IMG/VR virus record: IMGVR_UViG_3300026980_000004
DNA length: 64,000 bases
Reading direction: 5' to 3' (one strand)
DNA from: a virus
Taxonomy: Duplodnaviria > Heunggongvirae > Uroviricota > Caudoviricetes
Position numbers and translations under genes: made by a program. The notes under the pieces are model-generated. The model had not been told where the DNA came from. It saw nothing but the letters and a program-made list of their open reading frames with translations, and ran no database searches. Shown piece by piece: positions 44,084-64,000 of the stretch. Numbering within the stretch: the first letter of the stretch is position 1; each line of letters opens with the position of its first letter.

Positions 44084-44087
44084 ATTA

Positions 44088-46739: not shown

Positions 46740-46961
46740 TTATTTTTTATTTCTTTCCAAAGCATATATTCGTTTAATTATTTCTTCGTTCGTTTGTTTA
46801 TCAAGACTACTCACATCATCACCAACAATTGCATCTTCTCTCCCTAAATTATAGGCACGTAATAAAAGAGGATTTGGATTCCACATTTTTTTTCTACCAT
46901 ATAATTCATCTTTAAATCCGCAAATATACGTTTCTAATAATATATTATCTTGATCATCCAT
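46740..46961 (-). CDS. hypothetical small protein
   Basis: 73-aa ORF. Confidence 0.3.
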   Translation of the reverse strand: MDDQDNILLETYICGFKDELYGRKKMWNPNPLLLRAYNLGREDAIVGDDVSSLDKQTNEEIIKRIYALERNKK

Positions 46962-47081
46962 ATTTTAATAATAATAATTTAGCTTTATTAATATATTCTT
47001 CCATTAGCATTTAATTTTGACTAAAAAATCAATATGTGCATATCCTTTATCCGTATTAACAGTTTGAAATAATATAGAAAA

Positions 47082-48827: not shown

Positions 48828-48880
48828 ATATATAAATACTCAATAATTTATTTATTTTCTTAATATTCTAGATTTTTCCA

Positions 48881-49738
48881 TTAAATTTTATTAACTTTGC
48901 TATCACTTAATGAACTTTTATATTTATGATTCCAATCATTAATTTTTTTATCATATTCTTGTTTTAGAATCGCATTCTTATTATTAACATCTTCAACATC
49001 GATTTTATGTTGTGAAATTCTTTTTTGATTTTCTTCAGATACCAAGTTTTTAACTTTAGCTTTAATATAATTTACCTTTTTTTCATAATTCCTATGAACG
49101 TTAGCTAGTTTATTATGGAGTTCATCGTAAAAATCGACTTGGTGGTGTTGTGATATTGTAATAATTGATTTTTCATCTTTCTTTTGTTCAAACCATTCAA
49201 TCGATGGAATATTATGAACTTGAGACCTAAAATTTTCAAGAATTGAATTTTTATGTATGAATTGACCAATATGTGCAGCATGTGCTTCATTATCTAAATA
49301 CTCATTATATTCCTCATCTGTCAATTGATCAAAACCCCACTCTTCATCAACTAATATAAGACTAGGTTCTAATTCGTATTTTGGATTTTCTGGCTTTTCA
49401 ACATTAAAAACAAATTCCTTATCTTTTTCTTCCTCAATTAACTGATCTTTTCTTTTCATAGCATCCATTAAATATGCTTGAAAAGAATGTAATCTAGCCT
49501 TTTCTTCTAATAATTTATCAACATCATATGGTATTTTTTTAGTCTTATATATAATAACGTCACCAAAATATTTATCATATAAACCATATGATTTAAATTT
49601 TTTATTAATGTTTTCAGCTTTTTGATTACACAAATTTGATAATGATTGTGCATCTGACATCGATAGTCCTTCTTTACCTAAATTTCTCATATTTTTTTTA
49701 TTATTTATAATTATTGTGGAAACCCATCTAATTTCCAA
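48881..49738 (-). CDS. coiled-coil protein, hypothetical
   Basis: 285-aa ORF. Confidence 0.4.
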   Translation of the reverse strand: MEIRWVSTIIINNKKNMRNLGKEGLSMSDAQSLSNLCNQKAENINKKFKSYGLYDKYFGDVIIYKTKKIPYDVDKLLEEKARLHSFQAYLMDAMKRKDQLIEEEKDKEFVFNVEKPENPKYELEPSLILVDEEWGFDQLTDEEYNEYLDNEAHAAHIGQFIHKNSILENFRSQVHNIPSIEWFEQKKDEKSIITISQHHQVDFYDELHNKLANVHRNYEKKVNYIKAKVKNLVSEENQKRISQHKIDVEDVNNKNAILKQEYDKKINDWNHKYKSSLSDSKVNKI

Positions 49739-49968
49739 TTTTCATATTCTTCTAAGACTAAATCAATAATTGGTTTAGCATGTTCAAGTATTTTATTATT
49801 TAATTCAACAACCTCTGGAATATCATTACCATTTTCATCCAATGGAATCAAAATAGTACCACCCATTTTATCAATAAAATATGCTTGAATTGCAACTTTT
49901 AATCTGATATCTAATGGTATTTGTTTTAATGATTCTCTAATGTCGAAATTTTCTTCTTTTTTTATCAT
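49711..49968 (-). CDS. hypothetical small protein upstream of the recombinase
   Basis: 85-aa ORF. Confidence 0.3.
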   Translation of the reverse strand: MIKKEENFDIRESLKQIPLDIRLKVAIQAYFIDKMGGTILIPLDENGNDIPEVVELNNKILEHAKPIIDLVLEEYENWKLDGFPQ

Positions 49969-49994
49969 AACGAAACAAAGGTATAATTTATTTT

Positions 49995-50798
49995 TTAAAC
50001 TACCAAATTCACCTTTGACAAAATTTGATTCGAAACATGTGTATAAATTTCTGTTGTTTTATCATTTGAATGTCCTAAAATTTTTTGTATAATTCTTAGG
50101 TCAGTCCCATTTTCTAATAATGCGGTTGCTGATGAATGTCTCAAAGTGTGTATCGAACTTTCATTGTCAATATATTTTTTGTAAATTTTTTGACAACTCC
50201 CTATTGAATATTGTTCATTTTTTTGACCATTGAAAAGATAATTAGTTGGTTTATATTGTTTATAATATAATCTAAGTAATTCTAAAACTGTTTGTGATAG
50301 TGGAACTATCCTATCTTTCCTACCTTTGGCATTTTTAATGTGGATTAACATTTTTTTTGAATCAATATCTTCAATTTTTAGATTTACGACTTCAGAAACT
50401 CTTAAACCAACTGAAAAAGTTACACTTAATATTGATTTGTGTTTAATATTTTCAATTTGAGATAATTTGAATTTTATTAATTCACAATCAATTACTTTAG
50501 GTAATTTCTTTTCTGATCTAGGTCTTTTAAATGACACTTTATCATATTTTTTACCTAAAACTTCTTTATATAAAAATCTAATTGAATTAATTACTTGATT
50601 TTGTTGTGATGTTGATGTGAATTTATAATTATTCAAATAGTGTTTAAAATCATCAGAACTACAATGAATGATTTGCTTATCACCCATGCTATCAATAAAA
50701 TGTTTTATATGTGATATATAATTTTCTTTGGTTCTTGGTGAATAGTTTAGATATATAAACTTTTGTTCACAAATCTTTATAATTTTTTGGTTTTTCAT
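49995..50798 (-). CDS. intI: tyrosine recombinase, putative integron-type integrase
   Basis: C-terminal catalytic region LRHSSATALLENGTDLRIIQKILGHSNDKTTEIYTHV (R..H..R..Y). Divergently oriented next to an attI-like site and a cassette array. Short (267 aa) for a classical IntI. Confidence 0.6.
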   Translation of the reverse strand: MKNQKIIKICEQKFIYLNYSPRTKENYISHIKHFIDSMGDKQIIHCSSDDFKHYLNNYKFTSTSQQNQVINSIRFLYKEVLGKKYDKVSFKRPRSEKKLPKVIDCELIKFKLSQIENIKHKSILSVTFSVGLRVSEVVNLKIEDIDSKKMLIHIKNAKGRKDRIVPLSQTVLELLRLYYKQYKPTNYLFNGQKNEQYSIGSCQKIYKKYIDNESSIHTLRHSSATALLENGTDLRIIQKILGHSNDKTTEIYTHVSNQILSKVNLVV

Positions 50799-50853
50799 GT
50801 TGTAAGATATTGAAAATTAATATATTATGAAAACTTATGTATATATAATAGTT
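50799..50853 (+). other. attI-like recombination site ending in the G|TT crossover triplet
   Basis: Ends in ATATATAATAGTT. The 10 nt GTTGTGGTGC are exactly reverse-complementary to GCACCACAAC at 51108-51117 (R'' of the first attC). Duplicated at 30932-30990. Confidence 0.55.
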
Positions 50854-50861
50854 GTGGTGCA

Positions 50862-51101
50862 TCATAATTCACGTACAGCTACAACAATTCCATTTTTAGG
50901 AGTGCCATCAGAAAAAAGCCCTTCGTGTTCTATTTCTGCAATCATTTTATCACCCCAATGATTATTCTTATAATTCCACAAAGCATCAAACCTATCTTGT
51001 GTAATTCCAACTTTCGGGTGAAACGTATCTTCACTATTTAATGGCTCACAAGTCATTGACTTTTTTCTGCTTAATCCTACTAATTTAAAATCTGATTTCA
51101 T
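50862..51101 (-). CDS. cassette 1 gene (reverse-oriented), hypothetical
   Basis: 79-aa ORF inside the first cassette. Confidence 0.4.
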   Translation of the reverse strand: MKSDFKLVGLSRKKSMTCEPLNSEDTFHPKVGITQDRFDALWNYKNNHWGDKMIAEIEHEGLFSDGTPKNGIVVAVREL

Positions 51102-51107
51102 AATTAA

Positions 51108-51236
51108 CGCACCACAACACAGTATAAAATCAAGCGTGGTTATAGTGTCTTTTTGACCGCTTCGGCTGTTTAAGTAGTTTGTAGCTGGCGGAGAAGTGTT
51201 TGCCGTTCATTCCCCGCCAGCTTTTATACTCGTCCG
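51108..51236 (+). repeat. attC site 1
   Basis: GCACCACAAC...CAGTATAAAATC / GCTTTTATACTCGTCCG|TTAGGC; R' GTTAGGC is the canonical core. Confidence 0.65.
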
Positions 51237-51449
51237 TTAGGCAACATTTTTAACCACTTTACGTATTTTTGTCTTCGCAGTGGTATCATTGTACCTATAT
51301 AAAATATCTTCTATTTCTAATATTTCTTTTTGTGGTAAATTTAAACCAGTTTCAACATACCTACCACTGCTTATACAAGCATCTACAAATTCTTTTAATT
51401 TATCTCTTGTTATCATAATAAAACGTTGCCTAACAAAGTGTATAAGCAA
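51237..51449 (-). CDS. cassette 2 gene (reverse-oriented), hypothetical
   Basis: 70-aa ORF. Confidence 0.4.
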   Translation of the reverse strand: MLIHFVRQRFIMITRDKLKEFVDACISSGRYVETGLNLPQKEILEIEDILYRYNDTTAKTKIRKVVKNVA

Positions 51450-51544
51450 TAGCCGTTAGGCGTTTTAACTATTCCAGTTGTTAATATTTAATTTTGTACT
51501 TCTAATCAAATTCCGTGTTCGGCTACTGCTCATACACTCGTCCG
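51425..51544 (+). repeat. attC site 2
   Basis: GTTGCCTAAC matches the rc of the cassette start TTAGGCAAC. Halves AACAAAGTGTATAAGCAATAGCCG / CGGCTACTGCTCATACACTCGTCCG|TT. Confidence 0.65.
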
Positions 51545-51565
51545 TTGTATGCAATAAAAATTATT

Positions 51566-51734
51566 TAGTACAATTGTGTAACGCATTACTGTAAGCGTTT
51601 TTTGGCGTGTTGCCATAACCAAGTACAATTCTATTTTTATCCCAAGTATCATAAACAACATAACCATTTTTATATCCTAAATTGTGTAGGCAACACTTAG
51701 GGTGTATCTTTTTTAAATTATCTCGTGCTTTCAT
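51566..51734 (-). CDS. cassette 3 gene (reverse-oriented, 56 aa; below the ORF-track cutoff)
   Basis: Translates as MKARDNLKKIHPKCCLHNLGYKNGYVVYDTWDKNRIVLGYGNTPKNAYSNALHNCTK. Confidence 0.3.
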
Positions 51735-51753
51735 AATTTTTACAGTTCGCTAC

Positions 51754-51844
51754 GCCATACAACAAAGTGTATAGCAAATAGCCTATTAATATTCAGTTTT
51801 TAATTCAACGGTCTGTGCTTCGGCTACTTGCCATACACAAGGCG
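51754..51844 (+). repeat. attC site 3 (91 nt)
   Basis: GCCATACAAC...GGCTACTTGCCATACACAAGGCG|TTAGCAG. Confidence 0.6.
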
Positions 51845-51856
51845 TTAGCAGTAATA

Positions 51857-52138
51857 TCATTTTTGTTCGTGAGTAACCCAACCATTTTGTTTTAATTCAG
51901 TTGCGTATTCGTGAATGATTTTATACTGCTCATATTGTTCATCTGTGCAATGATATGAATTGAATTTTTGCAAAAACATTTCATAAACTATCATTTCAAC
52001 AATCTTTGGTATCCCACTATATGCTTCCATAAGTGCTTTATAATTTTTTTCCTGACCAAATGTTTTTGCAAAAAACAAAATGGCATTTTCTACTTGTTCT
52101 TTACTTGCTTTCATATTTTTATATTTATCGTTAAACAA
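51857..52138 (-). CDS. cassette 4 gene (reverse-oriented), hypothetical
   Basis: 93-aa ORF. Confidence 0.4.
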   Translation of the reverse strand: MFNDKYKNMKASKEQVENAILFFAKTFGQEKNYKALMEAYSGIPKIVEMIVYEMFLQKFNSYHCTDEQYEQYKIIHEYATELKQNGWVTHEQK

Positions 52139-52147
52139 AAATGATAC

Positions 52148-52239
52148 ATACTGCTAACAGCGTATATGAGAAGTGGCACAGAAACATTTGTGCTAAATTT
52201 CAACATTCTACAAGTGCCACTTCTCATATACGCAAAACG
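52148..52239 (+). repeat. attC site 4 (92 nt)
   Basis: TACTGCTAAC (rc of cassette start TTAGCAGTA). GCGTATATGAGAAGTGGCAC / GTGCCACTTCTCATATACGCAAAACG|TT. Confidence 0.65.
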
Positions 52240-52250
52240 TTAGTGGCAAT

Positions 52251-52529
52251 TTAGTCATCAGACATACCACTTCTACATTTTATATCTTCCAAATCCCACA
52301 AAAAAAGTAGTGTGTTATTAAAGGTCGCATCATACCAAGGATATTTTGGATGGTCTTTGAATTGTTTTGCGTTCTTCAAAGCTAACTTTTTTTGTTCGGT
52401 ATATTTTTCAATCAAAGCATCAATAAAACTACCACTAACATCAAATAAATCCAATACTTGCTTTAGTGCTTCATCAGCAGTCATTTCTCCATTTTTAACC
52501 TTGTGCTTATAATAATCTGTTGCTTTCAT
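52251..52529 (-). CDS. cassette 5 gene A (reverse-oriented), hypothetical 92-aa helical protein
   Basis: ORF paired with a neighbouring 92-aa ORF in the same cassette (two-gene cassette; possibly a TA-like pair). Confidence 0.4.
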   Translation of the reverse strand: MKATDYYKHKVKNGEMTADEALKQVLDLFDVSGSFIDALIEKYTEQKKLALKNAKQFKDHPKYPWYDATFNNTLLFLWDLEDIKCRSGMSDD

Positions 52530-52569
52530 AACCGTACTGTATTTATTTGCATTCCGTTGTAGGTAATAG

Positions 52570-52848
52570 CTATTCAGGGTTCAGTTCTCTAAATAACTTA
52601 TATATGTTTTCGGGCTTTGTGAATAAGTCATTAACCCCAGTCAGCACTCTAACAACTGTGTATAATGCTCGTAGGTAGTCGCTATTATCATTGAAGTAAA
52701 TTGCGGAAACTGCTGCATTTAGTGCTTCCTTACTTGCATCGCTACTACCTACAACACCAAATAAAACCAATAGCCTGTCTTTTGCTTCTTGCTTGCTTAT
52801 TTCGTGTTTACAAAGTTCATCTATAATTGAGTCTATTTTCTTTTCCAT
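52570..52848 (-). CDS. cassette 5 gene B (reverse-oriented); start trimmed to the internal Met MEKKIDSIIDEL
   Basis: The upstream part of ORF-track entry 52570-52935 is low-complexity and overlaps a + strand gene. Confidence 0.35.
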   Translation of the reverse strand: MEKKIDSIIDELCKHEISKQEAKDRLLVLFGVVGSSDASKEALNAAVSAIYFNDNSDYLRALYTVVRVLTGVNDLFTKPENIYKLFRELNPE

Positions 52849-52875
52849 ACGGCTACTGTTTTTATTTGTGGAACG
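52849..52875 (+). repeat. degenerate/truncated attC 5 retaining only the R' end (AACG|TTGTGGGTAATATT)
   Basis: GTTGTGGGTA is reverse-complementary to TACCCACAAC at 53402-53411. Confidence 0.4.
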
Positions 52876-52930
52876 TTGTGGGTAATATTGAAAAACTGAA
52901 ATTGAAAAGAATTGATTGGATATTATTATT

Positions 52931-53396
52931 GGCATACATCGGAATCCACATAGTTATCGGATTGATTTATGTGCTAAATCTTTATGACCGAGAATGGATT
53001 CAGGATTTCTATTTTGTAATTCCATTTATTTATGTGTTTTTGATATTTGACATTTATCATAAACGATTTTGGAATAACAGAATTCTGATGATTTGGGGAA
53101 TTATCGGAGTAATTCAATTAGTCATTTATTATAACTATAGTGATTTACCTGAAATTCAAACCATGAATGGAAATGATTTGATTTGGTTAAAAGCATTGCC
53201 TTTGACAATCCTGACCTCTTATATCTTAAATTTGATTAATAAAAAAGTTTATGGAGATAACTTTATAGTAACCGCATTTCGACTAGACCCGAAACGGATT
53301 GACCAAAAAGACGGAAGAAAGTTGAGACCAGCTGACTATATTTTCTCTGTAAGCGGATTTATGATTATAATATTTGGAACAGTATTTACGAATTAA
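52931..53396 (+). CDS. cassette 6 gene: multi-TM membrane protein (start uncertain; TTG at 52931 or a later Met)
   Basis: ORF 52827-53396 in the track overlaps the opposite-strand gene; hydrophobic throughout. Confidence 0.35.
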
Positions 53397-53400
53397 AATA

Positions 53401-53579
53401 CTACCCACAACAATGGCTATAGTTCATTGCTACTCTCCTGCTTCAATTTAAAATTTTTCTTACTTTTAATACTTAAACATAAAGAGGAATGATTTCGTTA
53501 CGCTGTTTGCTTCGCACGTGTGGAAAAAACTAGCAACGCTTCGCAAACCGCCAACCGCAACGAAACCATAGCCCAAACC
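53401..53579 (+). repeat. attC site 6 (179 nt; near-identical to attC 8)
   Basis: ACCCACAACAATGGCTATAGTTCATTGC ... GCAACGAAACCATAGCCCAAACCG|TTGCCAG. Confidence 0.65.
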
Positions 53580-53626
53580 GTTGCCAGTAATTTAACCGAA
53601 CTAAAAAGCATTAATATATTGATTAA

Positions 53627-54400
53627 ATGAAAAGCCAAATTTTAGTTTATTTTCTTTCAATCTTCATACTCTTTTCTTGTAAAAACAAAGACAATGAATT
53701 GACCGAAATGAATTCATTTTTACAAGCTAATTTTGAATTCAACAACCGAACTCTGAATAAGAATAAAGGAGATTATTATAGAATAATTGAGGAGATGCCT
53801 TCTCGAGAAATTGAAAAACTGAATGAATTGGATTCAAGATTTGAATCGTTAATTTTTGCAATTGATAGAGCAATCAAGAATAAAGAAAAAAATCTGGAAA
53901 ACATTATTGCGGAATCCAACGAAATTCTAAATGAGGTTCCGAAAATTGTAGACAATAGAAAAGACTATTTATTACCAGAATTTAAACAGCCGAAAACTGA
54001 CTCTAAAGATTTAAGTCTAAAATACATAAAGAATAGACTTGTAATTGCAATGGCTTATGCATTTGAATATGCGAGCCGACAAACTTATTCTGTTGATGGA
54101 TTGTATAAAGTTGACATAGACAGTATAATCTCAAGAAAAACAGACAGCGGAATTAAACTTACCTTGACTTCAAGGTTTGGACAACCAATAAAAGAAAACA
54201 GACACATTTTGATTAATAAAATCGAACTCAATGGAAAAGAACAAAAAATTGATTTTGAACTTAAAGATAATTACTCTTTTGCGGACATTGAATTAGATTC
54301 ATTACAATCTGGAATTTATAAAATGAACGGAATTTTACGTTTTTATCATAGAGAACAAAAATTTGACATACCGTTCGAAAAGGAATTTAAAGTGGAATAA
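53627..54400 (+). CDS. cassette 7 gene: lipoprotein (Bacteroidetes-type lipobox LFSC)
   Basis: Signal peptide MKSQILVYFLSIFILFSCKNK. Confidence 0.5.
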   Translation: MKSQILVYFLSIFILFSCKNKDNELTEMNSFLQANFEFNNRTLNKNKGDYYRIIEEMPSREIEKLNELDSRFESLIFAIDRAIKNKEKNLENIIAESNEILNEVPKIVDNRKDYLLPEFKQPKTDSKDLSLKYIKNRLVIAMAYAFEYASRQTYSVDGLYKVDIDSIISRKTDSGIKLTLTSRFGQPIKENRHILINKIELNGKEQKIDFELKDNYSFADIELDSLQSGIYKMNGILRFYHREQKFDIPFEKEFKVE

Positions 54401-54403
54401 AAA

Positions 54404-54530
54404 CTACTGGCAACAACGTGTATAGCTCATTGCGGCTGAATTCCTAATCGGAATTCATTGCAATTTGCTATCTTTGGTACACGGCGGAAAATCCTCGCGG
54501 ATTTCCCGCAACGAGCCATACACAAGACCG
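54404..54530 (+). repeat. attC site 7
   Basis: TACTGGCAAC (rc of the preceding GTTGCCAGTA). GGCAACAACGTGTATAGCTCATTGCGG / CCGCAACGAGCCATACACAAGACCG|TTGGC. Confidence 0.7.
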
Positions 54531-54547
54531 TTGGCATTAATTTTAGA

Positions 54548-55183
54548 ATGACAGAATACAGAATAAAAGTTATTAAACAGAAGAGACTATTGATTTCTAT
54601 TTTCCTGGTGTCGATAATCTTCCCTTTTTGTTTTCTGATTCCAACTCAATTTGACTTAATTATCTGGAAAATAACTGTTCCAATTTTGACAGTTGGAATT
54701 CTTGGGATTCTAATGTTTTATTTCACTGTTGGACAATTAAGAATAACACTTAAAAATAGAAAACTCGATTTTCAATGGAAACGAAAACCAATATTGAATT
54801 TCAAAGAATATAACTCAATCGGAATTGATGAAATCACAACTATAATAGTTGAACAAGGAATATTTTTACGGAAATTAAAAACAGAAAACTCTGAAATCGA
54901 ACTTGGTGGAATAAAATCCAAAAATGCGGATTCATTAAAATTGCTGAATTTATTAAAGTCAGAGACAAGTGTTAAACCAAAAGATAGTTGGGACGTTTGG
55001 AAAGAGCGTGGTTGGTTGAAAATCGCATATCAAATTAACCTTTTAATTTTAATTATAGCAACTGGCATAGTAATTACATTTATCATTCTAAAAGGATTTG
55101 ACTCAAAGCTATTGTTGTTTATTCCGTTAGTTTTAAGCCAACTATTTTTTAGCCATTTACAAATGAAAGACAAACTGAAATAA
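54548..55183 (+). CDS. cassette 8 gene: multi-TM membrane protein (start trimmed to ATG outside the attC)
   Basis: MTEYRIKV...; several hydrophobic helices. Confidence 0.5.
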   Translation: MTEYRIKVIKQKRLLISIFLVSIIFPFCFLIPTQFDLIIWKITVPILTVGILGILMFYFTVGQLRITLKNRKLDFQWKRKPILNFKEYNSIGIDEITTIIVEQGIFLRKLKTENSEIELGGIKSKNADSLKLLNLLKSETSVKPKDSWDVWKERGWLKIAYQINLLILIIATGIVITFIILKGFDSKLLLFIPLVLSQLFFSHLQMKDKLK

Positions 55184-55188
55184 AAAAC

Positions 55189-55367
55189 TAATGCCAACAC
55201 TGGCTATAGTTCATTGCTACTCTCCTGCTTCAATTTAAAATTTTTCTTACTTTTAATACTTAAACATCAAGGGGAATGATTTCGTTACGCTGTTTGCTTC
55301 GCACGTGTGGAAAAAACTAGCAACGCTTCGCAAACCGCAAACCGCAACGAAACCATAGCCCAAACCG
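55189..55367 (+). repeat. attC site 8 (179 nt)
   Basis: TAATGCCAAC is the rc of GTTGGCATTA at the cassette start; over 90% identical to attC 6. Confidence 0.7.
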
Positions 55368-55392
55368 TTGGGCACCATATAAAAATTTAGAA

Positions 55393-55878
55393 TTGACCGA
55401 TAAAGTACCTTCATATCCCTCAGAATTATCTAATGAAAGACTTGCCGAAATCAAAAAGGAGATTAATGGAGATATTCGGATTTATCTCAAGAATTGTTCA
55501 GAAAACTATCTTGAATACATAAATGCTGCTCAAAAGCTATTTCCAGAAGTTTATGAACGAATGAAAAAGTTTGACTCGGAATTCGATATGACTGCATACT
55601 TATCAGAACTGGACGAAGCAAAAAAGTCAAAAGATGTAGGAACGGAATATGGACTTTTAAAAAATGGAGTGGAAATGAGAATTTATACACCTGCTACTTA
55701 CCATAGGTTAGCCATGCTTCATGAAAAAAATGGACGCTTGGAAAAAGCAAGAGATGTTTGTCTGACTTGGTTTGAAACTGACTTTTGGAAGTTGCCTAAT
55801 ACTTGGAAAGGTAGTTTAAGAATTTTGGACAGACTGGAAAAAATTGAAAAAAAATACGGTGCCCAACACCGGCTATAG
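55393..55878 (+). CDS. cassette 9 gene: hypothetical soluble protein (TTG start)
   Basis: 161-aa ORF. Confidence 0.45.
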   Translation: MTDKVPSYPSELSNERLAEIKKEINGDIRIYLKNCSENYLEYINAAQKLFPEVYERMKKFDSEFDMTAYLSELDEAKKSKDVGTEYGLLKNGVEMRIYTPATYHRLAMLHEKNGRLEKARDVCLTWFETDFWKLPNTWKGSLRILDRLEKIEKKYGAQHRL

Positions 55879-55987
55879 TTCATTGCGGCGGAATTTCCTC
55901 TCGGAAATTCCTGCGTATTTGCTAACTTTGGTTTACGGCGGAATAGTTCTGCCGAACCATTCCGCAACGAAACCATAGCCCAAACCG
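55858..55987 (+). repeat. attC site 9
   Basis: GGTGCCCAAC is the rc of GTTGGGCACC. Confidence 0.7.
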
Positions 55988-56003
55988 TTGGCGTTAATTT
56001 AAA

Positions 56004-56435
56004 ATGAATTACATAAAGACTAACATATTGCTATTTATAATGTTCATTCCGTTCATCAATTTTGGACAGGAAAAGGACGGAGAATGTGTGGAATATGAAC
56101 CGATTGAAATGTACAATTTGAGAATAGCAATAATTGAAAAACAGAATTTAGACGTTTGGCCAAGTATTGTGGAAATTAAAAATCTAACGGAATTAAATAC
56201 TAAAAGAAAAGACTCTCTGATTTTATTCATTGCCGAAACCGATAACGGAGACAAATTACGAATGACAAATTCTTCGGACTTGAGCAAGTTTGCGGAAATG
56301 GAATATAAGAATGATTGCAGACAAGATGGGACGATATTGACCGACTTAAAACTTGGGAAAATTAATCTGACTGAAATGAAAGCGGAAATATTTTGTCGGA
56401 AAGAAAAATACGCTGAACTGAAAATAAAAAACTAA
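56004..56435 (+). CDS. cassette 10 gene: secreted protein (signal peptide)
   Basis: 143-aa ORF with N-terminal hydrophobic leader. Confidence 0.45.
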   Translation: MNYIKTNILLFIMFIPFINFGQEKDGECVEYEPIEMYNLRIAIIEKQNLDVWPSIVEIKNLTELNTKRKDSLILFIAETDNGDKLRMTNSSDLSKFAEMEYKNDCRQDGTILTDLKLGKINLTEMKAEIFCRKEKYAELKIKN

Positions 56436-56617
56436 CGCCAACAATAGCTATAAGTAATGCGGAAAGTCTGGGCAAAATCGAAGGTTTAGGCTTGTTTTCT
56501 CGCTCGCAATTTATATATTTATCGGATGAAATTAATAAATTAAAAATTGCTCGCTTGGGGTCGTGTTGAATTGAAAGGTTTTGTCTTTTTTAGTCCGCAC
56601 TACTCATAGCCAAACCG
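56433..56617 (+). repeat. attC site 10 (185 nt)
   Basis: TAACGCCAAC is the rc of GTTGGCGTTA. Confidence 0.65.
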
Positions 56618-56628
56618 TTGGCAACAAT

Positions 56629-57144
56629 ATGAAAATCAACGCAGATTCCTACATAACAAATAGTCTTGTTTACCGATTGAGTAATTACTCATACGGAATA
56701 GGAATTTTATTGACTTTAATACTGCTGACTTTTTATTGGACAGATAAAAACAATCCTGAAATAGGAACTATATTCTTGATATTCGGGATTCTAATATTTT
56801 TATCACTCATAATAGGACGAATCGCTCGAATTGTTTCGGGCGGATATTTTTGGCATCATATCAAAAATGACTTTAAGATAAATCAAGACTCTATCGAATT
56901 AGAAAATGAACGATATGAATTCGATAAAATAAAATTGCTCAAGTTTAACATAACGGATTATGAAAAACGAAAACCGTTCTTATATCAACATATTCTAAAA
57001 GACACACGGAATATGATAAAATTTGTGACTGATGAAAATATTATTCAGGTACATTTCAAACCCGAAAATGAATCTGAAAATGAATATTTGACTGAATTAA
57101 AAAAAATGTGGAATGCTAAAAATACTGTTGCCAACAATGTATAA
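56629..57144 (+). CDS. cassette 11 gene: membrane protein (start trimmed to the Met outside the attC)
   Basis: MKINADSYITN...; two TM helices. Confidence 0.45.
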   Translation: MKINADSYITNSLVYRLSNYSYGIGILLTLILLTFYWTDKNNPEIGTIFLIFGILIFLSLIIGRIARIVSGGYFWHHIKNDFKINQDSIELENERYEFDKIKLLKFNITDYEKRKPFLYQHILKDTRNMIKFVTDENIIQVHFKPENESENEYLTELKKMWNAKNTVANNV

Positions 57145-57255
57145 CCGCAATTACGGTGGATTCGACTACGTCCGAATCCACTCGGAATTGCTAACGTCAG
57201 TTCTAAACCTAAAATTTACGCATATTAACCCGTAACTGACGGTTATACGAGACCG
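57126..57255 (+). repeat. attC site 11
   Basis: TGTTGCCAAC is the rc of GTTGGCAACA. Confidence 0.7.
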
Positions 57256-57270
57256 TTGCCAAACATTTGA

Positions 57271-57858
57271 ATGAAAATAGTCGGTACAAATATAAATTTC
57301 GTTTTACTCGACATAAATAGCGTAAAAGAAAAGAATGAATTAATTCTGACCTTGACCAACATCAGTTATTTACCGAGAGAGTTAAAGCCAAATGAATATA
57401 AAAAATTCAAGCTGACTGTTTATGGAATCGAACAATTGGAATTAGCAAAAGAGTCGATTTCGGAATTTCTAAATGACTACGTAGACATTGAACAAACCGA
57501 AAACAAAACCCTTGAATTCTGGAGTGACCAACACAAAATTGGAGAATTTGGTTTTGAAAAATTCAAAGAAGAAGTTGCGGAATTGGACAAAGCCGATTGG
57601 ATAGAAAACTATAAACAAGCATTGAAAATATATTATCGAGATTATGACCAACAGATAAAACTATCTCGATTAGAAAATGAGTTTTTAAGTAAGTTAGAGA
57701 ATCTGATAAAAGACGAGGTTAGGAAATCGGACAAAAAACTGGAATTCTTTAATGAAAACAGTTCAAAATCTGAATCAATAACTGACAAACTAAATCTCTT
57801 AAAAAGATTGGATAATATTAAAACGGAGTATCTGACAAAGTGCAAAAACGTGGAATAA
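57271..57858 (+). CDS. cassette 12 gene: hypothetical protein
   Basis: 195-aa ORF. Confidence 0.45.
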   Translation: MKIVGTNINFVLLDINSVKEKNELILTLTNISYLPRELKPNEYKKFKLTVYGIEQLELAKESISEFLNDYVDIEQTENKTLEFWSDQHKIGEFGFEKFKEEVAELDKADWIENYKQALKIYYRDYDQQIKLSRLENEFLSKLENLIKDEVRKSDKKLEFFNENSSKSESITDKLNLLKRLDNIKTEYLTKCKNVE

Positions 57859-57866
57859 AAAAACGT

Positions 57867-57994
57867 TTGGCAACAATGTATAACCGCAATTACGGCGGAT
57901 TCGACTACGTCCGAATCCACTCGGAATTGCGAGCGCCAGTCCTTAACCGAAAAACATTAACTTTAAACCCGTAACTGACGGTTATACTAGACCG
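57867..57994 (+). repeat. attC site 12 (about 90% identical to attC 11)
   Basis: TTTGGCAAC is the rc of GTTGCCAAA. Confidence 0.7.
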
Positions 57995-58006
57995 TTGTAA
58001 ACAATT

Positions 58007-58507
58007 ATGAAAAAAATCCTGACTTTAATTCTGATTTCAGTTTTTATAGGTAGTTGCAAGACTTCCGAAAGAAAACCAAAATCGAATGCGGACGAATTAC
58101 AACAGCGGATTTTAGGAAACGTAATGGGATTAAATCGATTGGAACTAACCGCAAGTTTTGACGAATGCGGAGAATGGGGCGGACACGATGAGAAATTTGA
58201 TATTTATCGTGAAAATAAAATACTCTTTGCGGAATACGTTGAGGATATTGTTGACTGCAAAGACCCTTATTCAGAAAACAGAAAAATAGCGGAACGGAAA
58301 ACTTTACGGCTGAATGAAACGCACGAAAAAGCTATCGTGAAATATCTGAATTCTTTACTGGAAATTGGATTAAAAATGGAATTACCCTATCACGCTGGAA
58401 CTCATTATAGTGCTGTAATGAATGACTCAACTATGATATTAAAGTATCACTCTGTGAAAAGCAGTTGGAATGAATACGAAAAACTAAAAGCTGAATTATT
58501 AAAATAA
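58007..58507 (+). CDS. cassette 13 gene: lipoprotein (lipobox FIGSC); cassette duplicated at 63880 onward
   Basis: MKKILTLILISVFIGSCKT signal. Confidence 0.5.
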   Translation: MKKILTLILISVFIGSCKTSERKPKSNADELQQRILGNVMGLNRLELTASFDECGEWGGHDEKFDIYRENKILFAEYVEDIVDCKDPYSENRKIAERKTLRLNETHEKAIVKYLNSLLEIGLKMELPYHAGTHYSAVMNDSTMILKYHSVKSSWNEYEKLKAELLK

Positions 58508-58509
58508 CT

Positions 58510-58640
58510 GTTTACAACAACGGCTATAGTTCATTACGGCTGAAATTCCTAATCGGAATTTCGAGCCTTTTTGCTAAATTTATGGTTACGGCGGAATGAT
58601 ACTCGCGTACCATTCCGTAACGAAACCATAGCCAAAACCG
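58510..58640 (+). repeat. attC site 13
   Basis: TTTACAAC is the rc of GTTGTAAA. Confidence 0.7.
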
Positions 58641-58665
58641 TTAGCTGTAATTTAAACCAAACTTT

Positions 58666-59370
58666 GTGGCAGAAAAGAAAGACATCGAAAAACTAATAGT
58701 TCAGAATAAAAAAAGCAATCTGAAAAACCATTGGAACGATGCATTTTTCTACAACACGACAAAGTACAGCGGAGAAATTAAGCCGAATGAACTTTTGATT
58801 TGGCGTTCATCGCATTTTTTACGTAGTGCATATCCTATATTCCATCTGACTTTTGACCAAAACAATAAACTTAATGGAATAAAAAAAGAGAAAAATCCTT
58901 ACCACAAACTACTGAATAAATTGACAATTGGATTTTTAATTGTGTTAATAACAGGTCTGTTCATAACAACTGAATTGAAAACCGCAATTATTGGAACAAT
59001 CGGAATCGCAGTAATTGGAACGTTATTGAGTTTGGTTTTAAGAAAATCTAAAAGATATGAAATCAAACTTTTGACTGACGAGCTGAAAGAGGCCATTGAA
59101 AATATTGAACAGTTGAATAATCCCGAACTGATTAATAAACCAAAATCAGAATCAGAATCAAAAACAGAAAAGGTTAAAGAATGGACTTTTACAAAAGTTT
59201 TGACAAGGCTTCTGCTATATCCTTTTTGCCTACTGATTTTATGGTTTTCAATTACTGGGTTTTTACCAGAAGGAAAAACATTATATGGACTATTTGGAAT
59301 AGTAGTCGCATTGGCATATCCAATAACTGACATACTGCTGATATTCGGAAAAAATAAAAACTACAGCTAA
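58666..59370 (+). CDS. cassette 14 gene: multi-TM membrane protein (GTG start)
   Basis: 234-aa ORF. Confidence 0.45.
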   Translation: MAEKKDIEKLIVQNKKSNLKNHWNDAFFYNTTKYSGEIKPNELLIWRSSHFLRSAYPIFHLTFDQNNKLNGIKKEKNPYHKLLNKLTIGFLIVLITGLFITTELKTAIIGTIGIAVIGTLLSLVLRKSKRYEIKLLTDELKEAIENIEQLNNPELINKPKSESESKTEKVKEWTFTKVLTRLLLYPFCLLILWFSITGFLPEGKTLYGLFGIVVALAYPITDILLIFGKNKNYS

Positions 59371-59546
59371 CAACGGCTATGAGTAATGCGGGCTTAGGTA
59401 CTGAATTCAAACTTTCTGCTTCTTTTTCCGCTCGCAATTTGTATATTTATTGAGAAAAATAATAAACATAAAAATGGCTCGCTATGGTCAGTGCTGAATT
59501 GAAACTAATAGATTTATTTGCCCCGCACTACACATAGCCTGAACCG
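59365..59546 (+). repeat. attC site 14 (182 nt)
   Basis: AGCTAAC is the rc of GTTAGCT. Confidence 0.65.
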
Positions 59547-59567
59547 TTGTACGCAATTTGAGAAACG

Positions 59568-60179
59568 ATGAGTAAAAAATCAATATTGATTTCTATATTA
59601 ATAATCGGAATTGGAATTTCTCTTTGGTATTTCGGATTTTTTAGTCGATATAATTATTTGACTGCCAAAACTGATATTGCAAAAAATAACCCTCAAATAG
59701 TTTATGTTGGAGAGTCAATGCTAACACCATCGGATTTAAACACTGTGAGTAAAAAGTATGGTTTTGAAATTATTGGTTTTGGTTGCACATTGAGCGCAGT
59801 AGAGCAAAACGGAATTGAAATTTATAATTCCCAAATGGACAACTATCTGGACAAACTAAATGGAATTGGATGGAAATCTGAATACAAAAAAGAGATTGAT
59901 TCTCTAATGAAACTGACTAATATTCCAAAAAGCGCATTTTGGATTGAAAAAAACGGAAATGGATTTTGGTATAATGTGGATTTTATGCACAGTCACAAGA
60001 ACAACGCAAGAATTTCAATTTTCGACAAATTTGGCGAACTAATTACGGATGGAAAATTTATTTTGGTATGTCCGACAGACGAAATTGAATTTATGGACGA
60101 TTTGGAAAAACAAATTGACTTTTATGACGGAGAGAATATTCAATTAAAAAGCAATTGTTACTTATTAAAAAGAAAATAA
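59568..60179 (+). CDS. cassette 15 gene: N-terminally anchored/secreted hypothetical protein
   Basis: 203-aa ORF. Confidence 0.45.
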   Translation: MSKKSILISILIIGIGISLWYFGFFSRYNYLTAKTDIAKNNPQIVYVGESMLTPSDLNTVSKKYGFEIIGFGCTLSAVEQNGIEIYNSQMDNYLDKLNGIGWKSEYKKEIDSLMKLTNIPKSAFWIEKNGNGFWYNVDFMHSHKNNARISIFDKFGELITDGKFILVCPTDEIEFMDDLEKQIDFYDGENIQLKSNCYLLKRK

Positions 60180-60184
60180 AAACT

Positions 60185-60314
60185 GCGTACAACAACGTGT
60201 AAGCGCAATAACGGCTGAATTTCCTAATCGGAAATTCAACTCGTTTTGCTAAATTAGGTGCGTCAGCGGAAAGTACTCGCGTACTTTCCCGTTACTGACG
60301 CTTACACAAAACCG
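60185..60314 (+). repeat. attC site 15
   Basis: GCGTACAAC is the rc of GTTGTACGC. Confidence 0.7.
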
Positions 60315-60434
60315 TTACCTGCAAGCTGAAAAAAGAGCCAACCGCACAAAACAAAGAGTGCCGAAAAAGGCACACATTGTTTTTTTGCCAACGCTCGGAA
60401 TAACATTAAATTTGAGAAAAAACATAAAATATAT

Positions 60435-63400
60435 ATGAGCTTATTTCAGAACTCTGTTCTAAACAAATATTTAAAAGGATTGGAGTCCGAAAAAGTTACG
60501 CAAGCATACGAGCGATTTACAAGTCATTTCCATAATCCAACCATTCAAGAAAACATTCGAAACTCGAAAGAGGAACAATATCAAGGTGAATTTCTAATTG
60601 ACCTTTTTGTGAATGTTTTGGGCTACACGAAAAATCCAACGCCTGAATTTAATCTGACCACTGAATTAAAAAACATAAAAGGCTCTAAAAAGACAGATGG
60701 AGCAATTCTAAAAGGTGACAAAGCACTTGCAGTAATTGAACTGAAAGGAACAAACACAACCGATTTAAGTAAAGTAGAAACCCAAGCATTTGGATATAAA
60801 AACAACCAGCCAGGTTGTAATTATGTAATTACTTCCAACTTTGAAAAATTGCGTTTTTACATAGACAACGCAGTTGATTTTGAGGAATTTAATCTTTTTC
60901 AGCTTTCAAAAGAACGTTTTGATATACTTTGGCTTTGTCTTTCATCCGATTATCTGTTAAAGGACATTCCGAAAAAGATTAAAGATGAATCCTTAACCCA
61001 AGAGGAAAACGTCACTAAAAAACTTTACAAAGATTACGCTTCATTTAGAAACGAGATTTTTGATGCCATTCAAAAAGAGAATCCTGAATATGACAAACTA
61101 ACTTTATTCAAGAAAACGCAGAAATTACTCGACCGTTTTCTATTTATCTTTTTTGCAGAAGATAGATTATTATTGCCACCAAACTCAATTCGTTCCATCG
61201 TAAACCAATGGACTGATTTACGAGATAAATATGACGAGTATTTTCCTTTGTACGACCGATTTAAGAAATATTTCGGTTATATGAACACAGGACACAAAGG
61301 ACAACAGCACGATATTTTCGCCTATAATGGTGGCCTCTTTGCACCTGACGAGATTTTGGACAACATCAAAATCAATGACGATTTACTTTACAAACACACA
61401 GTTAATTTAAGTAACTACGATTTTGAAAGTGAAGTAAGTGTAAATATACTTGGTCACATTTTTGAACACTCGTTAAACGACATTGACGAAATTCAAGCAG
61501 AGATTCAAGGAATAGAAACCGAACAGAACAAAACCAAGCGTAAAAAAGACGGTGTTTTTTACACGCCAAAATACATTACCAAATACATTGTAGATAATAC
61601 AGTTGGTAAACTTTGTGAGGAAAAGAAAATTGAATTTGACATACAAGAAGCTGAATACGAAAAAGAACGAAAGGGAAGACAAAAAGCGACCTTAAAAAAA
61701 CTAACTCAAAAGTTAGAAGATTACAGAAAGTGGTTATTACAGATTACCATTTGCGACCCAGCTTGTGGTAGTGGAGCTTTTCTAACTCAAGCATTGGAAT
61801 TTCTAATTTCAGAACATCAATACATTGACGAATTACAAGCTAAACTTTTTGGAGATGCAATGATATTAAGCGAAGTTGAAAATGCTATTTTGGAAAACAA
61901 TATTTATGGTGTTGATATTAATGAGGAAAGTGTTGACATTGCAAAACTATCATTGTGGTTAAGAACTGCACAAAAAGGCAGAAAATTAACCTCATTAAAC
62001 AACAATATAAAATGTGGCAACAGTTTAATTGACGACCCAACTTTTGCTGGAGAAAAAGCTTTTAATTGGCAAAATGAATTTCCAGAGGTATTTGCAAAAG
62101 GTGGTTTTGATATTATTATTGGAAATCCCCCTTATGTTCAGCATAGAAGATTAATGGAATATTCAAGTCACTTTAAAAACCATTTTTCAGTTTATACTGG
62201 CACATCTGATTTAAGTGTATATTTTTATGAACAGGCAATAAATATTTTAAAAGACAACGGATTTTTAGCTTACATTAATACAAATAAGTTTTTTAACACC
62301 GAATATGGCTTACCATTAAGAAACTACTTAACTAATTATCAAATCAATACAATAATCAATTTTGAACAAGTGTCAATTTTCAAAGACGCATTGGTTTCAA
62401 GTACAATAAACCTAATTCGAAAATCAAATCCATTAAGTATCGTAAATTATATAGAGTTCAATAAAGAAAAACTTGCAGATTTAGATTTTCAAAACGAGCT
62501 AATTACTCGAAAGAGAGAAATAACCAACAATTATTTAAAGAAAAACAGTTGGTTGTTTACTGACCCTAAAATTTCTTTAATCATTAAAAAGATAAAAGGT
62601 AAGGGTAAAGCATTAGGCGATATTGAGGATTTAGAAATTAAAAGAGGTATTACTACAGGCTATGATGATGCATTTTTGATAGAAAAATCGCATTTATTAA
62701 ACACTTCCTATCCTGAAATTTCAAAATCAATTTTGCGAGGAAAAGACATAAAAAGATATGAGCTATCAGAAAGTGGTTTAAGTTTACTATTTATACCTTG
62801 GCATTTCCCATTACACTTGGATGAATCTATAAGTGGTGCTAGTCAAGATGCAGAAGAATCTTTGAAAATAAAATATCCTCAACTTTACGAACATTTGCTA
62901 AAGCATAAGGATAGGTTATCTAACAGGAACAAGTCAGAAACTGGTAAGAGATATGAATGGTATGCTTTACAAAGGTGTGCAGCTTCATATTATGAACTTT
63001 TTGATAAACCTAAAATAGTTTGGGGTTTAATAACTGGTAATTGGGGATTTAGTTTAGACGAATCTGGAAATTTTCTAACTAGTTCGTCATTCTTTTTGAC
63101 TTCGAATAATATAAATCTTAAGTTTCTTTTAGGTTTGTTAAACTCAAAATTGTATAAATTTTATTTCAAGAATGTGGGTGAGCAAACTGCTGGCGGAGCT
63201 TATGTATTGAAAAAAACTTCGGTTGAAAAATTTATTTATCCATCTATAAAAGAAAATAATCTATTGCTTGAAAACATCAATCAAATGAGAATATTAAGCA
63301 ATAATTTGAATAAATATGAAGCAAATTTTTTAATGCTTGTAAAATCCAAGTTTGGTGATTTAAAATTAACAACAAAACTTCGTAGCTGGCACAATTTAGA

Positions 63401-63650
63401 CTTTAATCTATTTTTAAAAGATTTAGAAAAAGTACGAAAAAAATATGCTAAAGAAAATGAAACTGAATACAATAAGATTTCATTGAGTGAACAAGCGGAA
63501 TGGATGCAGTATTTTAATGAGCAGAAACAAAAAGCAGATGAATTAAAAAGAAAAATTGAAAAAACGGACAGAGAAATTGACCAAATGGTTTATGAATTGT
63601 TCGCATTGACAAAAGAGGAAATAAACATTGTGGAAGAAGCCACTGCATAA
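60435..63650 (+). CDS. Type IIG restriction-modification enzyme (fused PD-ExK endonuclease, gamma-class N6-adenine methyltransferase, target-recognition region)
   Basis: N-terminal D...ELK nuclease motif (TDGAILKGDKALAVIELKG). MTase motif I DPACGSGAFL. Motif IV GNPPY. 1071 aa. Confidence 0.75.
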   Translation: MSLFQNSVLNKYLKGLESEKVTQAYERFTSHFHNPTIQENIRNSKEEQYQGEFLIDLFVNVLGYTKNPTPEFNLTTELKNIKGSKKTDGAILKGDKALAVIELKGTNTTDLSKVETQAFGYKNNQPGCNYVITSNFEKLRFYIDNAVDFEEFNLFQLSKERFDILWLCLSSDYLLKDIPKKIKDESLTQEENVTKKLYKDYASFRNEIFDAIQKENPEYDKLTLFKKTQKLLDRFLFIFFAEDRLLLPPNSIRSIVNQWTDLRDKYDEYFPLYDRFKKYFGYMNTGHKGQQHDIFAYNGGLFAPDEILDNIKINDDLLYKHTVNLSNYDFESEVSVNILGHIFEHSLNDIDEIQAEIQGIETEQNKTKRKKDGVFYTPKYITKYIVDNTVGKLCEEKKIEFDIQEAEYEKERKGRQKATLKKLTQKLEDYRKWLLQITICDPACGSGAFLTQALEFLISEHQYIDELQAKLFGDAMILSEVENAILENNIYGVDINEESVDIAKLSLWLRTAQKGRKLTSLNNNIKCGNSLIDDPTFAGEKAFNWQNEFPEVFAKGGFDIIIGNPPYVQHRRLMEYSSHFKNHFSVYTGTSDLSVYFYEQAINILKDNGFLAYINTNKFFNTEYGLPLRNYLTNYQINTIINFEQVSIFKDALVSSTINLIRKSNPLSIVNYIEFNKEKLADLDFQNELITRKREITNNYLKKNSWLFTDPKISLIIKKIKGKGKALGDIEDLEIKRGITTGYDDAFLIEKSHLLNTSYPEISKSILRGKDIKRYELSESGLSLLFIPWHFPLHLDESISGASQDAEESLKIKYPQLYEHLLKHKDRLSNRNKSETGKRYEWYALQRCAASYYELFDKPKIVWGLITGNWGFSLDESGNFLTSSSFFLTSNNINLKFLLGLLNSKLYKFYFKNVGEQTAGGAYVLKKTSVEKFIYPSIKENNLLLENINQMRILSNNLNKYEANFLMLVKSKFGDLKLTTKLRSWHNLDFNLFLKDLEKVRKKYAKENETEYNKISLSEQAEWMQYFNEQKQKADELKRKIEKTDREIDQMVYELFALTKEEINIVEEATA

Positions 63651-63750
63651 GCCATACACATTTGAAATTCGCTCAAGCCAACGCTACGCCAAAAATTGCA
63701 AAAGAGTATGTCTTGCCAACGCTGAAAACCAAGCTGAACAGAAAAAAAGC

Positions 63751-63879
63751 CAGCTTACAACAACGTATATAAAAAATAGCGGTTTAGTCGCTTAATCAAA
63801 AGAAAATGAATAAATTAGAGGTCAGTTATAATCCGAAAAGTTAGTGCGTAAAATCCGCTACTTTTCATATACAAGACCG
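63751..63879 (+). repeat. attC site 16
   Basis: CAGCTTACAAC is approximately the rc of GTTACCTGCAAGCTG. ACGTATATAAAAAATAGCGG / CCGCTACTTTTCATATACAAGACCG|TT. Confidence 0.6.
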
Positions 63880-63892
63880 TTGTAAACAATTA

Positions 63893-64000
63893 TGAAAAAA
63901 ATCCTGACTTTAATTCTGATTTCAGTTTTTATAGGTAGTTGCAAGACTTCCGAAAGAAAACCAAAATCGAATGCGGACGAATTACAACAGCGGATTTTAG
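63893..64000 (+). CDS. start of a second copy of the cassette 13 lipoprotein gene (truncated by the window end)
   Basis: 63872-64000 is identical to 57986-58114. Confidence 0.5.

Follow-up and report, generated by a model that had tools for sequence, protein, structure and literature searches.

The 64,000-nucleotide stretch of DNA taken from the IMG/VR virus record IMGVR_UViG_3300026980_000004 (Caudoviricetes; the whole stretch is referred to here as the window) contains, close to its right end, a gene for a predicted restriction-modification (RM) enzyme of 1071 amino acid residues that is flanked by attC-like sites. A sequence-only reading of this DNA proposed that the gene is a mobile integron cassette in a phage, and the locus therefore raises the question of what the enzyme is, whether it is a cassette, and to whom it belongs. 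The best overall explanation, which we consider very probable, is that the gene encodes a Type IIG enzyme, that it is a cassette in the chromosome of a marine Flavobacteriaceae bacterium close to Mangrovimonas, and that its phage location is a product of assembly. The gene and the main features of its predicted product are as follows.

60435–63650, + strand: the RM gene, an ATG-initiated open reading frame (ORF) of 1071 codons for a predicted Type IIG RM enzyme
60696–60746, + strand: putative PD-(D/E)xK nuclease motif D88-x13-E102-L-K104, within TDGAILKGDKALAVIELKG (invariant residues, AlphaFold model)
61755–61781, + strand: methyltransferase motif I, predicted to bind S-adenosylmethionine (SAM), DPACGSGAF, residues 441–449 (homologue alignment)
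62124–62135, + strand: methyltransferase motif IV, predicted catalytic, NPPY, residues 564–567 (homologue alignment)
62142–63284, + strand: hypervariable, TaqI_C-like putative specificity region, residues ~570–950 (homologue alignment, TaqI_C)

The predicted protein matches the PADLOC Type IIG model REase_MTase_IIG (PDLC03609) over its full length, with residues 1–1071 aligned to model positions 1–1066 and a score of 1729.5 bits, in agreement with the Type IIG assignment made by the sequence-only reading; the runner-up PADLOC models for Type IIG enzymes reach about 250 bits, and those for PglX align over the methyltransferase core only, at about 90 bits. Pfam matches above cut-off are to Eco57I (163 bits, cut-off 25.3), MmeI_Mtase (61 bits, more exactly 60.8, cut-off 27), N6_Mtase (58 bits, cut-off 20.4) and TaqI_C (53 bits, cut-off 26.5, residues 765–933). 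MmeI_N and MmeI_hel fall just short (26.0 and 24.1 bits, cut-off 27 for each), and Pfam gives no match to the MmeI specificity or C-terminal domains; with MmeI_Mtase alone above threshold, the protein lies outside the MmeI family in the sense of having all of the MmeI-specific Pfam domains.

The conservation of the catalytic motifs was followed in an alignment of 137 homologues that are 49–95% identical to the RM protein. D88, E102 and K104 are identical in all 137, every residue of DPACGSGAF (part of DPACGSGAFL, residues 441–450) is kept in 136–137, and in NPPY (part of GNPPY, residues 563–567) the N and both P residues are invariant and Y567 is present in 135. PADLOC, Pfam and this alignment thus agree on the order of parts suggested earlier, an N-terminal PD-ExK nuclease followed by motifs I and IV and a C-terminal specificity region. 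The AlphaFold model (mean predicted local distance difference test score, pLDDT, 77.7; ~75–92 across the nuclease domain) has strands at residues 89–93 and 96–103, a helix at 112–123, and further strands at 130–134 and 138–143; D88, E102 and K104 are predicted to lie on or around the first two of these neighbouring strands, in the beta-beta-alpha-beta-beta arrangement of PD-(D/E)xK nucleases. Foldseek matches the C-terminal half of the model to CamA, BseCI and TaqI, and some 900–1000 aligned columns to BpuSI (Type IIG), MmeI and PglX, with the whole-chain template-modelling (TM) scores being low (0.2–0.35) because of a different domain arrangement, and the matches supporting fold classes only. 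In comparisons with solved structures, residues 439–960 are similar in sequence to CamA, and similarity to MmeI (PDB 5HR4) is limited to residues 421–622.

These data also bear on the alternative that the protein is a methyltransferase only, either an orphan enzyme or one of the PglX type found in BREX (bacteriophage exclusion) systems, with a nuclease that is dead or absent. The resemblance of its methyltransferase and specificity part to the orphan methyltransferase CamA, the partial matches to PglX models and the slightly sub-threshold MmeI_N match all lend themselves to this idea; however, the three putative nuclease residues are unchanged even in homologues with as little as 49% identity, no part of the protein is better conserved than its N-terminal 330 residues, and the NCBIfam PglX models score far below their cut-offs (119 against 500, 76 against 400, 65 against 900 and 44.5 against 900). 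Nor were BREX genes (pglZ, brxC, brxL) called near the RM genes, whose neighbours in the window and in contigs L001 and L019 are unrelated cassettes, and in contig L020 other defence genes. We therefore regard a methyltransferase-only protein as very improbable. The sequence-only reading had itself named variable nuclease residues, or grouping with BREX PglX, as findings that would speak against its assignment; the residues are invariant, and the protein scores with the Type IIG models. The RM protein thus appears to be a single-chain Type IIG enzyme with nuclease, gamma-class N6-adenine methyltransferase and specificity domains, its activity being predicted from its sequence.

The homologues differ from one another chiefly in the region that would read the target site. 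Mean identity to the RM protein is 86–96% over residues 1–550, falls to 49% at residues 551–600 and to 17–35% in the 50-residue windows from 601 to 950, and rises again to 56–66% in the last 70 residues. Several homologues are 95–99% identical at the N-terminus and merely 19–30% in the specificity region, and one (P0002) shows the opposite, with 51% at the N-terminus and 96% in the specificity region. The pattern among the homologues is that of a fixed nuclease-methyltransferase chassis with apparently exchangeable specificity domains. We also note that six homologues of 1188–1268 residues (P0043, P0046, P0059, P0089, P0095 and P0097), which are 87–93% identical to the query over a matched 52–57% of it, carry an additional PF01797 (Y1 transposase) domain, and that one source names this REP element-mobilizing transposase RayT.

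The location of the gene can be read from the contigs that overlap the window. From position 1 to ~50.8 kb the window is phage DNA with a guanine plus cytosine (GC) content of ~25%, encoding a gp23-type major head protein (Pfam Gp23, 246 bits; PHROG major head protein) together with a tRNA nucleotidyltransferase and polymerase-related genes. At the right end of this part is a tyrosine recombinase gene (49995–50798), whose exact sequence is present on NODE_55 of assembly ERZ508509 (L008; 265,825 bp, 84x). Over window positions 39995–52877 this contig and the window are 100% identical, and directly after CGTT they part completely; past this point the contig begins with AGCAACCATGTAAG, continues with ~30 small ORFs of its own, and is back to 25% GC some 9 kb further on. 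The far side of the junction is covered by other contigs, and the point of divergence coincides with a short repeat.

52555–52877, no strand assigned: 323-bp exact repeat comprising one cassette (TT52557 to G52875), present in phage and bacterial arrays; probable misassembly point (contig comparison)
Window 52801–58065: NODE_2619 of ERZ508509, 5,265 bp, 25.5x
Window 58566–63950: NODE_2526 of ERZ508509, 5,385 bp, 25.4x
Window 58566–64000: NODE_89 (L001) of ERZ508520, 134,620 bp, 8.3x, identical to the window

Several patterns emerge. First, within ERZ508509 the phage contig has a depth of 84x and both array contigs 25.4–25.5x. Secondly, NODE_89 continues past the window through eight further cassettes and then into genes for TetR, an epimerase, Por_Secre_tail and a GH92 glycosidase, which is Bacteroidota chromosome. 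Thirdly, the 323-bp segment (100% identity) is the only sequence common to the phage locus and any bacterial-array contig, and a contig from the Joint Genome Institute (JGI 3300001237, L018) that is identical to window 52555–53511, and so spans the junction, has four non-phage cassettes to the left of 52555. Contigs end at 52875–52877 in two other assemblies (L009, Logan SRR6201733; L011, ERZ508520), and NODE_2619 starts one 77-mer before that point. Finally, the longest contig on which the RM protein and the recombinase occur together measures 276,998 bp, which after subtraction of the 11,123-bp array tail leaves 265,875 bp, compared with 265,825 bp for the phage contig; the window itself ends 133 nucleotides (nt) into a repeated cassette encoding 166 amino acids.

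A phage-borne gene would have phage DNA on both sides, equal depth and the same arrangement in independent assemblies; instead, there is a complete phage contig that does not contain the RM gene. An exact-pattern scan for the start of the RM gene gave no match in viral_contigs, and one for the junction gave no match in metagenome_contigs, a collection that does not include these samples (the JGI contig L018 contains the sequence). The most likely course of events, in which we have good confidence, is that the assembler went round the phage genome as far as the shared cassette and there passed into the bacterial array, which it followed to the next repeat. The placement of the gene in a phage is not supported, given the divergence at 52877, the depths of 84x and 25x, the bacterial chromosome on the far side of the array, and a 323-bp repeat as the only link between the two parts; with it, the roles once suggested for the enzyme, against co-infecting phages or as a phage addiction module, lose their support.

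The bacterial relatives point to the probable owner. The 90% cluster of the RM protein includes WP_036117801.1 of Mangrovimonas yunxiaonensis, and in M. yunxiaonensis LY01 the gene encodes a 95% identical protein and is 91.6% identical as DNA. It lies there between attC-like sites beside a two-ORF toxin-antitoxin-like cassette (a label that comes from two small ORFs only), and this array is situated amid housekeeping chromosomal genes of the Pfam families DHDPS, DFP/Flavoprotein, YfiO and 5'-nucleotidase, which we read as dapA, coaBC and bamD-type genes. The close homologues are all from Flavobacteriaceae and other Bacteroidota, and tblastn against phages recovered only distant Type IIG-like genes with no more than 36% identity. 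The enzyme adds a member to an established family, its context is of a kind already described, and an annotated enzyme from Flavobacteriaceae is almost a copy of it.

The organization of the array in which the gene lies resembles that of an integron, with the following elements around the RM gene.

60315–63879, + strand: RM cassette, 3565 bp between G|TT crossover points (boundary analysis)
60184–60320, + strand: upstream attC-like site, belonging to the preceding 203-residue cassette (arm complementarity, folding)
63752–63885, + strand: attC-like site of the RM cassette, with R'' arm AGCTTACAAC and GTT core at 63879 (folding)
63880–64000, + strand: start of the second copy of the 166-residue cassette, the window ending inside the repeat (57983–58115 against 63868–64000, 99%)

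The GTT cores of the two flanking sites, at 60314 and 63879, are where the sequence-only reading had put the cassette boundaries. The stretch from 52876 to 63879 is divided by CGTT boundaries into 11 units, and in 10 of them the 10 nt from the upstream GTT are a perfect (10/10) complement of the 10-mer ending in AAC at the start of the 3' structured element, whereas the sequence after the downstream GTT matches at only 4–8 of the 10 positions; none of 110 mismatched unit pairings reaches 10/10. Such complementarity across G|TT is predicted by a circular cassette opened at G|TT. Exchange at the same point is seen in a contig from another sample (L003; 98% identical across the RM region), which joins the unit ending at 56617 straight to the unit starting at 59547, with four cassettes skipped and the junction exactly at GTT. 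In the site upstream of the RM cassette, the R'' arm TGCGTACAAC (60184–60193) is complementary at 10/10 positions to GTTGTACGCA at 59546, the start of the preceding cassette, and the single-stranded bottom strand folds better than shuffled sequence (z = -6.7). In the site of the RM cassette itself the bottom strand forms one long terminal stem (-15.8 kcal/mol, z = -3.5; top strand, -12.3), and in both sites the bottom strand is the more stable; the 5' arm of the latter site is homologous to the RM-cassette attC in five other genomes.

The family as a whole appears to be a widely travelled cassette of ~3.5 kb among Bacteroidota. Among 41 other Bacteroidota loci with RM homologues, 11 have a perfect boundary pair at about -177 and +130 relative to the ORF, GTTGTAAGTA in nine and GTTGTGTGTA in two; a twelfth pair, GTTTAACAAA at -377 in L029, is outside this pattern. 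Alignment of the Winogradskyella, Formosa, Lacinutrix and Algibacter copies and that of a Flavobacteriaceae isolate shows differing sequence to the left of GTT and a conserved 175-nt leader to its right. The copy in the window can be aligned recognisably to this canonical leader over no more than the ~103 nt that precede the ATG, and closely over just the final 50–60 nt, and its first 19 nt, TTACCTGCAAGCTGAAAAA, are the start of another cassette, the one that follows the RM homologue in a Winogradskyella metagenome-assembled genome (L019). In L019 the RM cassette is cognate, with GTTGTAAGTA upstream and TACTTACAAC downstream. The upstream region and 5' end of the window copy thus appear to have been rearranged and to be non-cognate.

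Other aspects of these arrays should be recorded. The 166-residue cassette, which is lipoprotein-like, occurs twice in the window (57983–58642 and 63868–64000) and brackets three cassettes of which the RM gene is the last; in L001 and L002 a complete second copy follows the RM gene. Contigs of several assemblies break at this cassette, and together with the different order in L003 this indicates that the array is polymorphic in the population. In L019, the unit directly upstream of the RM cassette (L019:4943–6839) encodes an ApaLI-type restriction endonuclease and an N6_N4 methyltransferase, such that two restriction systems adjoin in one attC array.

The phage also seems to have an integron-like platform of its own within its ~266-kb genome. 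Beside its recombinase (window 49995–52877, then L008:1000–10000) we find 18 perfect pairs of GTT+7 and complement, compared with ~1 in shuffled sequences, in a test that is symmetric and hence blind to attC orientation, and that cannot assign an attC to an ORF in the phage array. The array has 31–37% GC, against 24% for the phage backbone and like the bacterial chromosome flank in L001; its cassettes hold small ORFs of 51–149 residues, oriented towards the recombinase, and there is a GTT site 53 nt from the start codon of the recombinase. The recombinase (267 residues) is Xer/IntI-like, with NCBIfam scores that fall short of the cut-off for integron integrase (158 against 265) as well as for XerA (177 against 220), and with the IntI model matched in two pieces. 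Its family (77–91% identity, always ~267 residues) is found in hundreds of metagenome contigs, including phage-sized ones of 250–340 kb. In a 249-kb 'uncultured Caudovirales phage' (LR796923.1, L101) a GTT site again lies at +53, and three hallmark pairs are no more than 720 nt away from the recombinase; a 343-kb JGI contig (L103) has two such pairs ~700–1000 nt from it. The platform seems to be a trait of the lineage, with arrays of differing length. The cassette at the junction (52557–52875) is 319 bp with both boundaries exactly at G|TT, and contains a 92-residue ORF on the - strand, whose 5' end is overlapped by an attC-like element; its flanks differ on both sides between L008 and L018, and its 90% cluster has n = 43.

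Several observations weigh against parts of the proposed explanation. The evidence for the misjoin comes from contigs and the coverage given in their names, not from reads; a real recombination product at low frequency would look the same; and the junction falls exactly at an attC GTT core, near a phage recombinase that adjoins its own attC array. These points invite the alternative that the junction at 52877 is real, the phage recombinase and attC platform having recombined with the host chromosomal array at the shared cassette or its attC, with the RM cassette physically linked to a phage subpopulation or contained in a phage-chromosome cointegrate. If this were true, part of the phage population would be linked to the host array, either through capture of more than 11 kb of host cassettes or as phage integrated in the array. 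The phage certainly has the means, in its tyrosine recombinase and an array of at least 18 hallmark cassettes, and exchange does occur, since a 100%-identical cassette is common to the phage and bacterial arrays. The 77-mer with which NODE_2619 opens is also in the phage, but it lies inside the shared cassette and so is no proof of linkage, and it is explained by L018, where both flanks are bacterial. With the difference in depth between phage and array, the bacterial chromosome at the far end, and a complete phage contig that has its own continuation past 52877, we think a real join distinctly unlikely, and misassembly at the shared cassette remains the preferred explanation.

The further points of this kind concern the cassette and its recombination system. 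The start of the RM cassette in the window is not complementary to its own attC R'' arm, the best 10-mer in the scanned stretch upstream of the 3' boundary reaching 6/10 positions, and with this non-cognate 5' end it may no longer be mobile or excise cleanly; the description of the gene as a mobile cassette therefore holds for the family, with its defined boundaries and different neighbours, and not so readily for this copy. The ORFs tested in the 10 kb upstream of the LY01 RM gene included no tyrosine recombinase, and no integron integrase was seen beside the bacterial array, of which the contigs stop short of the array start. It could thus be argued that the repeats are not attC sites recombined by IntI and belong to some other palindromic family served by another recombinase, in which case 'integron cassette' would be the wrong term. 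Such a view draws also on the phage protein, the sole recombinase seen, being below the NCBIfam cut-offs with the IntI model in two pieces, and on unpaired spacers of ~4 nt on the 5' side and 6–7 nt on the 3' side, unlike those of textbook attC sites. However, AAC...GTT cores and paired inner repeats are present in the units, exchange is exactly at G|TT with the crossover complementarity that a circular cassette intermediate predicts, and integrons have already been reported in Bacteroidota (PMC8618304). We judge this alternative unlikely, and continue to describe the RM gene as an integron-type cassette.

The RM gene is accompanied by a number of regulatory-like sequences and repeats.

60358–60383, + strand: terminator-like hairpin GTGCC-GAAAAA-GGCAC with T-run, upstream of the putative RM promoter (hairpin scan)
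60384–60414, + strand: promoter-like sequence of Bacteroidota type, TTTG-N19-TAAATTTG, whose end is 20 nt upstream of the ATG (pattern match)
60387–60395, + strand: GCCAACGCT repeat at -48 (conserved position around homologues)
63677–63685 and 63715–63723, + strand: two GCCAACGCT repeats downstream of the stop codon (conserved positions around homologues)

The Bacteroidota promoter pattern occurs 12 times in the window against 5.8 expected, which is weak on its own, and the stretch containing the candidate promoter is almost invariant in six other genomes; a sigma-70 promoter scan was uninformative (17 sites against 15.6 expected). The hairpin lies within a 17-nt segment that is lacking in six homologous upstream regions. 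All three copies of GCCAACGCT in the window, against 0.16 expected, adjoin the RM gene, and in many genomes (L019, L021, L028 and others) direct repeats of the form GCCAAYGC(T) are found at about -125, -95, -82, -48, +30 and +68 of the RM homologues, at 5.1 per kb in these flanks against 0.07 per kb elsewhere, one copy overlapping the -33 TTTG of the promoter-like sequence. We considered these repeats as the recognition site of the enzyme and rejected the idea, since the repeats are kept beside homologues even where identity in the specificity domain is down to 17–35%.

The phage part of the window contains other genes that may be mentioned. The product of a gene at 9030–10058 matches a DNA modification protein of the Mom-like type and has a fused C-terminus that resembles a homing endonuclease; it may have an anti-restriction function and, more speculatively, could serve as a counter-measure to the RM enzyme. 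There is an IS607-type pair inside the phage genome at 47082–48827, consisting of a serine recombinase (188 residues) and a TnpB-like OrfB (392 residues), a second TnpB-like gene at 20277–21668 (463 residues), and a gene for an 826-residue ClpB-like ATPase at 44088–46568. Megablast of window positions 20001–45000 against 50,697 phage records gave no match.

As to function, by analogy with known members of the family, the C-terminal specificity domain would read a short asymmetric DNA site, the SAM-dependent gamma-class NPPY methyltransferase would mark the N6 of an adenine of that site on the cell's own DNA, and the N-terminal PD-(D/E)xK nuclease would cut unmethylated incoming DNA at a fixed distance from it. 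Expression is likely to be from the cassette's own Bacteroidota-type promoter, with the upstream hairpin perhaps shielding the gene from read-through, and the role would presumably be defence of the bacterium against phages. In the assembly, the ~266-kb phage genome would have been joined to the bacterial array through the shared 323-bp cassette.

The RM gene alone adds little, and the interest of the locus is in the phage's own array and the cassette that it shares. Because that cassette is common at 100% identity and the recombinase platform is present in other large phage contigs, the comparisons point to cassette traffic between a large marine phage lineage and Flavobacteriaceae; the very repeat that probably caused the misjoin is evidence of one cassette pool for a large phage and a bacterium, probably its host. 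There is a practical consequence, in that common cassettes can make assemblers fuse phage and host contigs and so generate false calls of 'phage-encoded defence'. For the enzyme, the homologues suggest that a conserved 3.5-kb cassette carries this Type IIG protein from one Bacteroidota genus to another, across many genera, with its specificity domain swapped.

Defence systems in chromosomal integrons, and restriction and methylation genes on integron cassettes, are documented (bioRxiv 10.1101/2024.07.02.601686; PMC8618304), and small type II restriction systems are reported to be common in integrons. The present locus is like the integron-borne defence systems of Darracq et al. (bioRxiv 10.1101/2024.07.02.601686) in having a defence gene between attC sites in a chromosomal array, with a toxin-antitoxin-like cassette beside the Mangrovimonas RM gene and an ApaLI-type RM system beside the L019 homologue. 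It differs in that the cassette is large (3.5 kb) with its own predicted promoter, and in that the host is of the Flavobacteriaceae, not Vibrio or another proteobacterium, with no integron integrase seen nearby. Phage genomes with attC clusters have likewise been described (Qi et al. 2023, PMC9892861); the neighbouring phage does carry cassettes of attC type, a set to which the RM cassette does not belong.

Of the known enzymes, CamA, M.BseCI and M.TaqI, which are gamma-class N6-adenine methyltransferases whose specificity domain is TaqI-like, give the best matches to residues ~439–960 in both sequence and structure, but they are stand-alone proteins without the 330-residue nuclease and helical N-terminus of the RM protein. 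PglX/BrxX of BREX (PDB 8C45, 9EWZ) share a related methyltransferase core in a large multi-domain chain, whereas the RM protein is far under the cut-offs of that family and has an invariant nuclease motif. MmeI (Type IIL/IIG, PDB 5HR4) has the same order of N-terminal PD-ExK nuclease, helical spacer, gamma-class methyltransferase and specificity domain; however, the RM protein is ~150 residues longer, with a conserved C-terminal helical tail, and its specificity region matches TaqI_C and not the MmeI specificity and C-terminal domains. The nearest named protein is WP_036117801.1 of Mangrovimonas yunxiaonensis, which shows 95% identity over the whole protein and 97% within its specificity region, is alike in length and domain order, and differs in nothing essential, the upstream region of the copy in the window having been rearranged.

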